From Promethearchaeota archaeon (GTDB lineage: Archaea; Asgardarchaeota; Lokiarchaeia; Sigyniarchaeales; SOKP01): 64,000 nt of DNA. Below the pieces are notes generated by a model. It was not told where the DNA came from. It worked only from the letters and a program-made list of their open reading frames with translations, and did no database searches. The stretch's first letter is position 1. Every line of letters begins with the position of its first letter. The stretch is from positions 42,400-106,399 of the forward strand of contig JBHLLT010000011.1 in assembly GCA_048938855.1 (NCBI GenBank), read 5' to 3'. The position numbers were made by a program, and so were the translations under genes. Positions 16,383 to 32,034 of this stretch are shown here, in pieces.

Positions 16383-16868
16383 GTGAAAAAAACGAATAGA
16401 AATGGAAAAGATTCAAAAAAAGTTGAAATTGAAGATTCAAACGGTTTAAAAATTTCCTATGATAAAGACGAATTAAGCAACCAATTTCCTCATTTGATTG
16501 AGGAAATTTCAACTAAAAAGAAATCTTTAAAAATTGAATCAATTAATATGGATATAGAACCAGAAAAAGAGAAGACGCCACAGAAAACTAACAATCTTTA
16601 TCTTAATGAATTATACAATCCTGGTGTAGTAGACTTTTTAAGAAGATGCAAAAGTACGGAAGACGCAATTGATATATTGGAATACTTAATGACAAGAAAA
16701 GAAATTTCCCTTGAAGATTACAATAAATATAAGAAAATCATTTCACAAGAAGGAGGATTAAAGCAACTTATTAATGAACATGGTGGCTTAAAAAGACCAG
16801 GATATTATATGAGAAAGTATTATAAAAAAGAGAATAATAATCAAGAATTAAATACTAAACCAGATTAA
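16383..16868 (+). CDS. DUF2095 family protein
   Basis: FPHLIEEI, YNPGVVDFLRRC..EDAIDILEYL..RKEIS, GYY. Confidence 0.75.
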   Translation: MKKTNRNGKDSKKVEIEDSNGLKISYDKDELSNQFPHLIEEISTKKKSLKIESINMDIEPEKEKTPQKTNNLYLNELYNPGVVDFLRRCKSTEDAIDILEYLMTRKEISLEDYNKYKKIISQEGGLKQLINEHGGLKRPGYYMRKYYKKENNNQELNTKPD

Positions 16869-16876
16869 TATCTATC

Positions 16877-16949
16877 GACAGATGATGAACTTATGACAAA
16901 GTTAGCTACTTGCTCGGTAGCAATGACATTGTCGCCCCAAACTGATGTC
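16877..16949 (+). ncRNA. C/D-box methylation guide sRNA, predicted target 23S rRNA P-loop G2251 (E. coli numbering)
   Basis: GACA/TGTC terminal stem, C box ATGATGA 16882-16888, D box CTGA 16942-16945, guide TGTCGCCCCAAA 16930-16941. Confidence 0.82.
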
Positions 16950-16961
16950 ATTTCTTATATA

Positions 16962-17213
16962 TTAAATTCCTGCTAATCTCTTTCTAAAACGAATTCCTTT
17001 CTCTGTTAAAAAATATTCATCATTATTCTGTTGAATAAGACCTAAATCACGTAAAACAGGTATCCTCCCATTTATACAAGATATAGGTAAACCAGAAAAT
17101 AATTTTATAGTTTCATAGTTTTTAGCTCCATTATTAATAGCAACCAGTATTTCAATTCCCATATAACCTAAGAGATTTTTCAAATCCTCATAAGTTTCTT
17201 CGTTTTTGGGCAT
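16962..17213 (-). CDS. Small winged helix-turn-helix protein
   Basis: 83 aa; EILVAI..GAKNYETI..SGLP..L..LGLI..YFLTEKG wing motif. Confidence 0.75.
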   Translation of the reverse strand: MPKNEETYEDLKNLLGYMGIEILVAINNGAKNYETIKLFSGLPISCINGRIPVLRDLGLIQQNNDEYFLTEKGIRFRKRLAGI

Positions 17214-20256: not shown

Positions 20257-21213
20257 ATGAGTGAATCAAAATATTTTAAAAAAATACTATTCTGTGGTTT
20301 GGAGAGTGGTGGAAAGACATCAATTTTATTGTTATTAGATAAAAAATTTAGTTTATTAGCCTCAGTTAAACCAACTATAAAAGCTAAAAGAACCTTTCAT
20401 ACGAATTCATTATTAGGCACCACTATTGTTCGTTGGGATTTAGGTGGCCAAAAAGGTTATAGGAAAGTATATTTGGGTGATAAAAGTAAGTACTTTACTG
20501 AAATGCAATCAATATTTTATGTTATAGATATCCAAGCACCAAAAAAATTTGAGGAAGCTCTAACTTTCCTTAAGGATATTATAAATATCACTTCAGAATC
20601 GCGTCCTGAGAACTTTCAACTCTTAATTCTCCTCCATAAGTGCGATCCAGATATTAAAAATAAGAAAAATATCATTATTAACATCAAATTCTTAGAAAAT
20701 GAAATTAAATCTATTTTAAAAGAAGTGAAATATTCTATTTTAAAAACTTCTATTTATGATGAACCAAGTTTATTAAAGGCTTTTTCTGATGGTGTTTTTT
20801 ATGCTACTCATCGATCAAAGATGTTTCAAACCTTATTAAAAGATTATATGGGCAAAACTTACAATAGCTCTACACTTTTATTAGATCAGAATTGTTTTAT
20901 AATCGCTAGTAGAAGTACTTATCAAGCTTATCAAGAAATTTGCGAAGCGATAGCCCCGAGATTAACTCAAGCTTTGGAAAAATTAGAAGAATGGGATATT
21001 AACACAATTGACATTGTAACAAATATTGAATTTCCTGAAAAACAGTCAGAGTCTCAAAAAGAAGGGATTATTTTCTTAAGAAAACTAGATATTGAAGATA
21101 CTAGACTATATCTAGTTGCACTGTGTTTGAATAAGAATGTGAAGATCAAATCCTATGAATATTTACCGTTATTGGCAGAAAATTTAAAGAATTTATTAGA
21201 GGCATTTGATTAA
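20257..21213 (+). CDS. Rag/Gtr-like small GTPase with C-terminal roadblock/longin-like domain
   Basis: GLESGGKTS, PT, WDLGGQ, HKCD (Rag-type HKxD), TSIYDEPSLLKAFS; about 120-aa C-terminal domain. Confidence 0.82.
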   Translation: MSESKYFKKILFCGLESGGKTSILLLLDKKFSLLASVKPTIKAKRTFHTNSLLGTTIVRWDLGGQKGYRKVYLGDKSKYFTEMQSIFYVIDIQAPKKFEEALTFLKDIINITSESRPENFQLLILLHKCDPDIKNKKNIIINIKFLENEIKSILKEVKYSILKTSIYDEPSLLKAFSDGVFYATHRSKMFQTLLKDYMGKTYNSSTLLLDQNCFIIASRSTYQAYQEICEAIAPRLTQALEKLEEWDINTIDIVTNIEFPEKQSESQKEGIIFLRKLDIEDTRLYLVALCLNKNVKIKSYEYLPLLAENLKNLLEAFD

Positions 21214-31932: not shown

Positions 31933-32034
31933 TGGACCTGACGGGAATTGAACCCGTGACCTCTTGAATGCGAATCTTGGAACTAAGCTTTCTGCTTAAT
32001 AAGATCAAGCGATCTTCCACTGATCTACAGGCCC
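31933..32034 (-). tRNA. tRNA-Ala(CGC) with 30-nt intron at position 32/33 (31974-32003)
   Basis: Acceptor GGGCCTG/CAGGTCC with G3:U70 and A73, D stem GATC/GATC, anticodon stem CTTGA/TCAAG, T arm GGTTCAATTCC; CCA not encoded. Confidence 0.95.

Follow-up and report, generated by a model that had tools for sequence, protein, structure and literature searches.

A conserved Loki-type Asgard archaeal box C/D guide RNA with predicted targets in the 23S rRNA P-loop and helix 89

What lies in the short gap between two convergent genes of a Promethearchaeota archaeon, and which RNA would it act on? The window analyzed here is a stretch of 64,000 nucleotides, within which a DUF2095 gene and a gene for a small winged-helix-turn-helix (wHTH) protein run toward each other, leaving 93 nt between their stop codons. 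Most of this gap is filled by a 73-base stretch, a genuine small guide RNA that is conserved among Loki-type Asgard archaea. A sequence-only reading had proposed it as a box C/D sRNA whose D guide directs methylation of G2251 in the 23S P-loop. The boxes, the 4-bp terminal stem, the internal hairpin and the spacing from the DUF2095 gene were all recovered in place, and the reverse complement that it quoted for the D guide is correct. The features, in window positions, are the following:

16383–16868, + strand: upstream flanking gene, encoding a DUF2095 protein (Pfam PF09868), with its TAA stop codon at 16866–16868, 8 nt before the sRNA
16848–16854, + strand: possible archaeal TATA box (TTAAATA), unproven, near the end of the DUF2095 coding sequence and within it, about 26 nt upstream of the sRNA
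16877–16949, + strand: box C/D sRNA gene, 73 nt, from sequence, conservation and RNA-library contigs
16877–16880, + strand: 5' strand of the terminal stem (GACA), partner of 16946–16949, from sequence and compensatory changes across homologs
16882–16888, + strand: box C, consensus ATGATGA, invariant in the genus alignment
16889–16900, + strand: 5' (D') guide, 12 nt, facing 23S helix 89 U2457–U2467 with an A·C mismatch at C2463, from covariation and duplex ranking
16896, + strand: A at D'+5, opposite U2460, from covariation and duplex ranking
16901–16904, + strand: D' box position, a degenerate GTTA in the host and NNGA in most other genera, from alignments
16905–16921, + strand: D'–C' hairpin with a 5-bp stem (GCTAC 16905–16909, GTAGC 16917–16921), from compensatory pairs; its loop carries CTC/TGCTC, a motif that the host family has conserved
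16920–16926, + strand: C' box with a degenerate sequence, GCAATGA, for which relatives often have GCGATGA, from alignments
16927–16941, + strand: D guide spacer, 15 nt, of which 16931–16939 lie opposite 23S U2249–C2257, from duplex comparison
16937, + strand: C at D+5, opposite G2251, from duplex comparison
16942–16945, + strand: box D, consensus CTGA, invariant in the genus alignment
16946–16949, + strand: 3' strand of the terminal stem (TGTC), 4 bp with GACA, from the fold and compensatory changes
16962–17213, − strand: downstream convergent gene, encoding the small wHTH protein

Pattern and folding alone are weak evidence for such an element: a box C and box D joined by a stem of at least 4 bp occur 8 times in the genome as against 4–5 times in shuffled versions, and the fold z-score is only −1.7. 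We judged the element to stand above chance because of its conservation. The pattern of box C, guide and box D was matched in 107 of the 161 genomes of the class, a count that includes at least one spurious match (genome G034), and never in the reversed control. Named records with a homolog are mostly Promethearchaeota (Loki) genomes, and carriers include Promethearchaeum syntrophicum MK-D1, Ca. Lokiarchaeum ossiferum B-35 and Ca. Harpocratesius repetitus. The sequence-only reading had made itself depend on synteny in relatives, and the same wHTH gene indeed adjoins almost all homologs checked, mostly together with DUF2095. The terminal stem and the D'–C' hairpin show many compensatory double-sided changes, with 97% of cells paired compared with 27–46% when the partners are slid.

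The sRNA shares the strand of the wHTH gene in one genome (G038), in the MK-D1 family and in a single host-family genus; elsewhere it lies on the DUF2095 strand. Compared with window positions 16383–17213, loci L079, L080–L092 and L145 carry the sRNA inverted relative to the wHTH gene, and relative to DUF2095 where that gene is present. This strand switch between the flanking genes is, judged from the sequences, an in-place inversion. A record titled Nanopelagicaceae bacterium (L224) carries a typical Loki sRNA, probably through mislabelling or misbinning of the record; the same type of sRNA is found in several records that bear the names Thor-, Hod-, Hermod- or Odinarchaeota.

An element that folds into a rod in a gap of this kind might instead be a product of chance, or a conserved structure that serves the convergent genes as 3'-UTR or terminator. 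Boxes C and D are nevertheless invariant, the guides track rRNA changes (see below), the element is retained after its orientation flips relative to the flanking genes, and no terminator-like site was found by a bacterial-type scan; we consider a non-guide origin barely credible. The promoter scan was also of bacterial type and uninformative. The TATA-like word was seen in the host sub-clade, and the alignment shows no clear motif upstream of the homologs that would represent a family-wide TATA box. An Rfam search returned no family at threshold for the element. Elsewhere in the window, the sole Rfam match is an intron-containing tRNA (31933–32034, − strand; Ala-CGC by ARAGORN), and a small GTPase with Gtr1/RagA as best Pfam match (20257–21213, + strand) is a typical Asgard eukaryotic-signature protein.

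The D guide most likely directs 2'-O-methylation of G2251 (E. coli numbering): comparison with related rRNAs supports the pairing, and the D+5 rule points to the methylated base. We take G2251 to be the P-loop target of RlmB. The 23S gene of the host assembly ends with its contig at model position 2064 of 2987, before domain V, and we therefore read the target from congeneric rRNA. The P-loop reads GGCUGGGGCGGCUC in all six congeneric 23S genes. Against it the D guide forms 9 bp, from +3 to +11 (U2249–C2257; −19.4 kcal/mol), placing the C at +5 in a Watson–Crick pair with G2251, with a G·U pair at +10 and +2 unpaired. When the best candidates under the pairing rules were compared over 16S and 23S rRNA, the P-loop had the lowest energy. 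In 13 genomes, all related and each scanned over 1.8 kb of 23S with about 110 sites, it came first in 12. The class, target and D+5 assignment of the sequence-only reading are thus upheld. A shuffle test of the best-site score in a single genome gave no significance, since 50% of the D-guide shuffles scored as well, and was superseded by covariation. In the MK-D1/B-35 family the rRNA carries G2248 and the guide a C at +2, which on sequence comparison is a compensatory change; there the U at +10 faces C2256 as a mismatch. That U is present in 73/73 variants, and an A at +2 is common (59/73).

The two deviations of the guide had been explained by a compensatory U2248/A2256 pair in the host rRNA, which would then read UUGGGGCGAC and match the guide perfectly over 11–12 bp. 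The one point in its favor is that the host P-loop is unassembled. The congeneric GGCUGGGGCGGCUC reading argues strongly against this prediction: all six congeneric genes and all 23S genes of the same family have C2248 and G2256, including those of two genomes (G001 and G030) with guides identical to the host's. Moreover, both deviations, the G·U wobble at +10 and the unpaired +2, are found in the Rfam consensus of yeast snR67. We take the yeast P-loop to read GGCUGGGGCGGC. With the same deviations snR67 installs Gm2619, the equivalent of E. coli Gm2251 (PMC8053091, PMC11121408), so that they are compatible with a working guide. We regard a compensatory pair in the host as extremely unlikely.

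P-loop pairing does not account for the invariant U at +10 and the frequent A at +2, a point in favor of an alternative in which the P-loop match is incidental and the true target is a perfectly matching tRNA, mRNA or other rRNA site. We found no perfect target of the D guide in the host genome and none conserved in 54 genomes of the genus: the 11-mer target has no second copy in the host, and extra copies in relatives are sporadic. No wobble-tolerant match was detected in GC-rich sequence such as tRNA genes, read in their unspliced form. In addition, position +2 covaries with rRNA position 2248. Another target is accordingly very unlikely.

A helix between the two guides, with UGAC opposite GUCG or GUUG, is also feasible in 40/40 aligned sequences, with no double-sided change. 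Such a helix could be the reason for the invariant +10 U; eukaryotic guides, however, keep this U with no guide–guide partner, which speaks against that explanation.

The sequence-only reading had left the target of the 5' guide to be searched for. In congeneric rRNA this guide pairs with the 5' strand of 23S helix 89, U2457–U2467, through 10 pairs plus the A·C mismatch at C2463. The host duplex is weak (−9.8 kcal/mol, mismatch included). In 8 of the 13 genomes helix 89 is the top-ranked site, and in the other 5 it takes second place. As with the D guide, the single-genome best-site test was not significant, with 69–77% of shuffles scoring as well. The stronger indication comes from comparison between lineages. 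In G038 the rRNA has U2458C and the guide has changed from GACAA to GACGA; in two other families the rRNA has A2465G and the facing guide U has become C; and where the rRNA has G2464A the guide has a U opposite. For three divergent guides (those of G038, of G050 and of G044/G055) the best partner is the rRNA of their own genome or family. These comparisons support the view that the 5' guide tracks rRNA changes across three families, the independent events being few and all in the same direction, and the helix 89 pairing itself appears to be under selection.

Several other candidates for the 5' guide were set aside. For the host-type guide, a slightly higher score goes to a site that lies about 168 nt downstream of helix 89, which is not the best in most other lineages; this site is presumably a wobble-rich match that lacks pairs at +2 to +4. 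The anticodon of tRNA-Met or tRNA-Asp was suggested by CAU and GUC words in the guide, and its complement occurs in no tRNA gene as read unspliced. The two A·C mismatches of the genus raised the idea of C-to-U rRNA editing at C2248 and C2463, which was dropped because both guide positions vary elsewhere, with G at both in some genera, and because helix 89 pairing tolerates bulges there.

Would the helix 89 arm also guide methylation? The guide is separated from the D' box by 1 nt in 54/73 variants, the host among them, a register that puts D'+5 at U2460; most of those outside the host clade have an NNGA D' box, which is CUGA in one genus. The spacer is 0 nt in 2/73 variants and has 4–7 extra nt in 17/73, taking D'+5 off U2460 with the helix 89 complementarity kept (nine rows of these counts were re-parsed by hand). 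The proposal that degenerate C' and D' boxes make the RNA more like eukaryotic snoRNAs than like archaeal sRNAs holds for the host sub-clade and fails for most other homologs, which have an NNGA D' and a near-consensus C'. The host boxes (GTTA and GCAATGA) lack the tandem G·A pairs, a motif that most other genera have in full or almost so. In the predicted fold the host D', which lost its GA in this sub-clade, is able to join the C' end in an ordinary helix.

The drifted D' spacing and the degenerate host boxes mean that the arm may anchor rather than methylate. Only G2251 would then be methylated, and the arm would be kept for pairing, either to tie helix 89 to the P-loop or to help the peptidyl-transferase center assemble. 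This is a variant of the dual-guide explanation and compatible with it, and both archaeal long-range dual guides and conserved pairings that do not methylate have been described (PMC4644070, PMC6009581), the former having been proposed as chaperones (PMC4644070). Against it stand the canonical 1-nt spacer of most variants, the alternative NNGA that several long-spacer variants have directly 3' of the guide, and the finding that divergent eukaryotic C' and D' boxes can stay active (PMC3116282). We give anchoring a little under even odds. Judged from the register, Um2460 is likely in much of the order and stands at about even odds in the host.

The hairpin loop offers a further possible contact. 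Its CTC, present in 64/73 variants, all 64 of them from the host family, could pair with GAG at 2464–2466 or in helix 81. The loop is compatible with GAGUAA in helix 89 (2464–2469) or in the 3' strand of helix 81, over only 4–6 bp and with 7–8 strict sites per 23S, and the support amounts to one evolutionary event, which makes this a weak suggestion.

The host has genes for the expected machinery. Fibrillarin and Nop5 are encoded side by side on contig C81 of the assembly, and there are two L7Ae-family genes. The single SpoU protein is TrmJ-like and reaches 39 bits where the cut-off for RlmB is 160; no protein of the host genome scores as RlmB. Bacterial RlmB and mitochondrial MRM1 reach the same predicted Gm2251 product by a protein-only mechanism, whereas in the host it would be sRNA-guided. 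As to expression, two contigs from one marine-sediment metatranscriptome match 16877–16950 without a difference, and the rest of the surrounding 1.2 kb is uncovered. One starts at the predicted 5' end and one has a divergent 3' tail. They come at low depth from one run, ends, strand and level not being readable from contigs; they weakly suggest a stable small RNA and may derive from a relative or from DNA.

Two further C/D elements with 5-bp stems were noted in the host assembly, both outside the 64-kb window. The D guide of one (contig C70, + strand, about 182313–182369) forms 10 bp with congeneric 23S rRNA and places +5 on the equivalent of C2498, which we take to be the RlmM site in E. coli. 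That of the other (contig C62, + strand, about 118139–118203) forms 10 bp with congeneric 16S rRNA near position 1345, roughly E. coli 1383. The same assembly contains two differing 16S 3' ends (contigs C18 and C40) and two short contigs (C29 and C30) whose GC content of 65% stands out in a genome of low GC, consistent with its reported 7% contamination. Among the relatives, a congeneric MAG has a second LSU rRNA gene, 4 kb long and strongly divergent, whose helix 89 is different (L048; G061:C68:17319-21347) and which is a contaminant or an intron-bearing copy, and a 23S gene with a bacterial-looking helix 89 and P-loop (L136; G117:C263) is probably a contaminant.

Together, these data favor a dual-guide archaeal box C/D sRNA, with a D guide for methylation of G2251 and a 5' guide for helix 89, a reading to which we assign a probability of roughly 85%. 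From the sequence, conservation and covariation of the sRNA we infer RNP assembly, methylation and any chaperone role. L7Ae, Nop5 and fibrillarin would assemble on the terminal C/D kink-turn; the D guide would form its duplex, one G·U included, with the P-loop, as the comparisons support; and fibrillarin would methylate G2251 by the D+5 rule. The 5' guide would pair, as covariation suggests, with the 5' strand of helix 89, about 205 nt downstream of the P-loop and also at the peptidyl-transferase center. Where the spacer is canonical the register predicts Um2460; in the host, whose boxes lack the G·A pairs, the main role of this arm may be that of a second anchor.

The element is an ordinary kind of RNA, with a well-known class and target. 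Yeast snR67 (RF01177), plant snoU31b (RF01285) and trypanosome TBR7 (RF00295) have the guide core UGUCGCCCCA and the U at +10, as in the Loki sRNA, with +5 on the equivalent of G2251, and the snR67 consensus also shares the A at +2. The likeness is confined to the boxes and the guide, about 11 target-constrained bases, and the host sRNA scores far below the Rfam gathering threshold of all three (15.0/55, 14.7/37 and 21.3/45 bits, respectively). The P-loop guide of snR67 and U31b is the 5' guide, whereas it is the D guide here, and the second target of snR67 is Um2724 instead of helix 89. In eukaryotic C/D snoRNAs with extra base pairing, a conserved D'–C' loop or a second guide is involved and methylation is not required (van Nues et al. 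2011, PMC3116282); the yeast-type extra elements, however, pair beside the methylation site, and not some 205 nt away. We regard as unlikely a broader view in which, across Promethearchaeales, the sRNA is an assembly clamp of the peptidyl-transferase center, with a helix 89 arm kept for pairing, guides closed until the substrate binds, and a P-loop guide whose G·U is a relic of common descent with snR67/U31.

Among archaea, the G2251 equivalent is a predicted target of dual-guide C/D sRNAs in three of the thermophile species studied by Dennis et al. (2015, PMC4644070), and the D guide of M. kandleri sR17 is complementary to the same helix 89 strand, in a pairing that we read as G2459. The guide core CGCCCCA occurs in none of the sRNAs listed in that study, and we recognized no entry joining P-loop and helix 89 in its table of long-range pairs. 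Thermophile sRNAs have about 50–60 nt, compared with 73 nt in the Loki sRNA, which differs also by its D'–C' stem. In other Asgard classes the candidate guides for the P-loop (L139–L142, G314 and G372) mostly have a C at +10 and different 5' guides, and their rRNA partners were mostly not recoverable. In the literature accessible to us, mostly outside subscription journals, we found no published Asgard C/D sRNAs, no catalogue of such guides and no Um2460. For Haloarcula, we take the equivalent of G2251 to be G2284. The equation of Haloarcula Gm1950 with Gm2251 in a review (PMC11542601) was therefore left unused.

Long-range dual-guide pairs are seldom retained beyond the genus (PMC6009581), and by that measure the two guides, which persist across an order, show unusually deep conservation. 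For the cultured MK-D1 and B-35 our analysis predicts Gm2251 and, probably, Um2460. These findings indicate that Loki archaea use an RNA guide in place of an RlmB-type enzyme for the near-universal methylation of the P-loop, as already predicted for other archaea.
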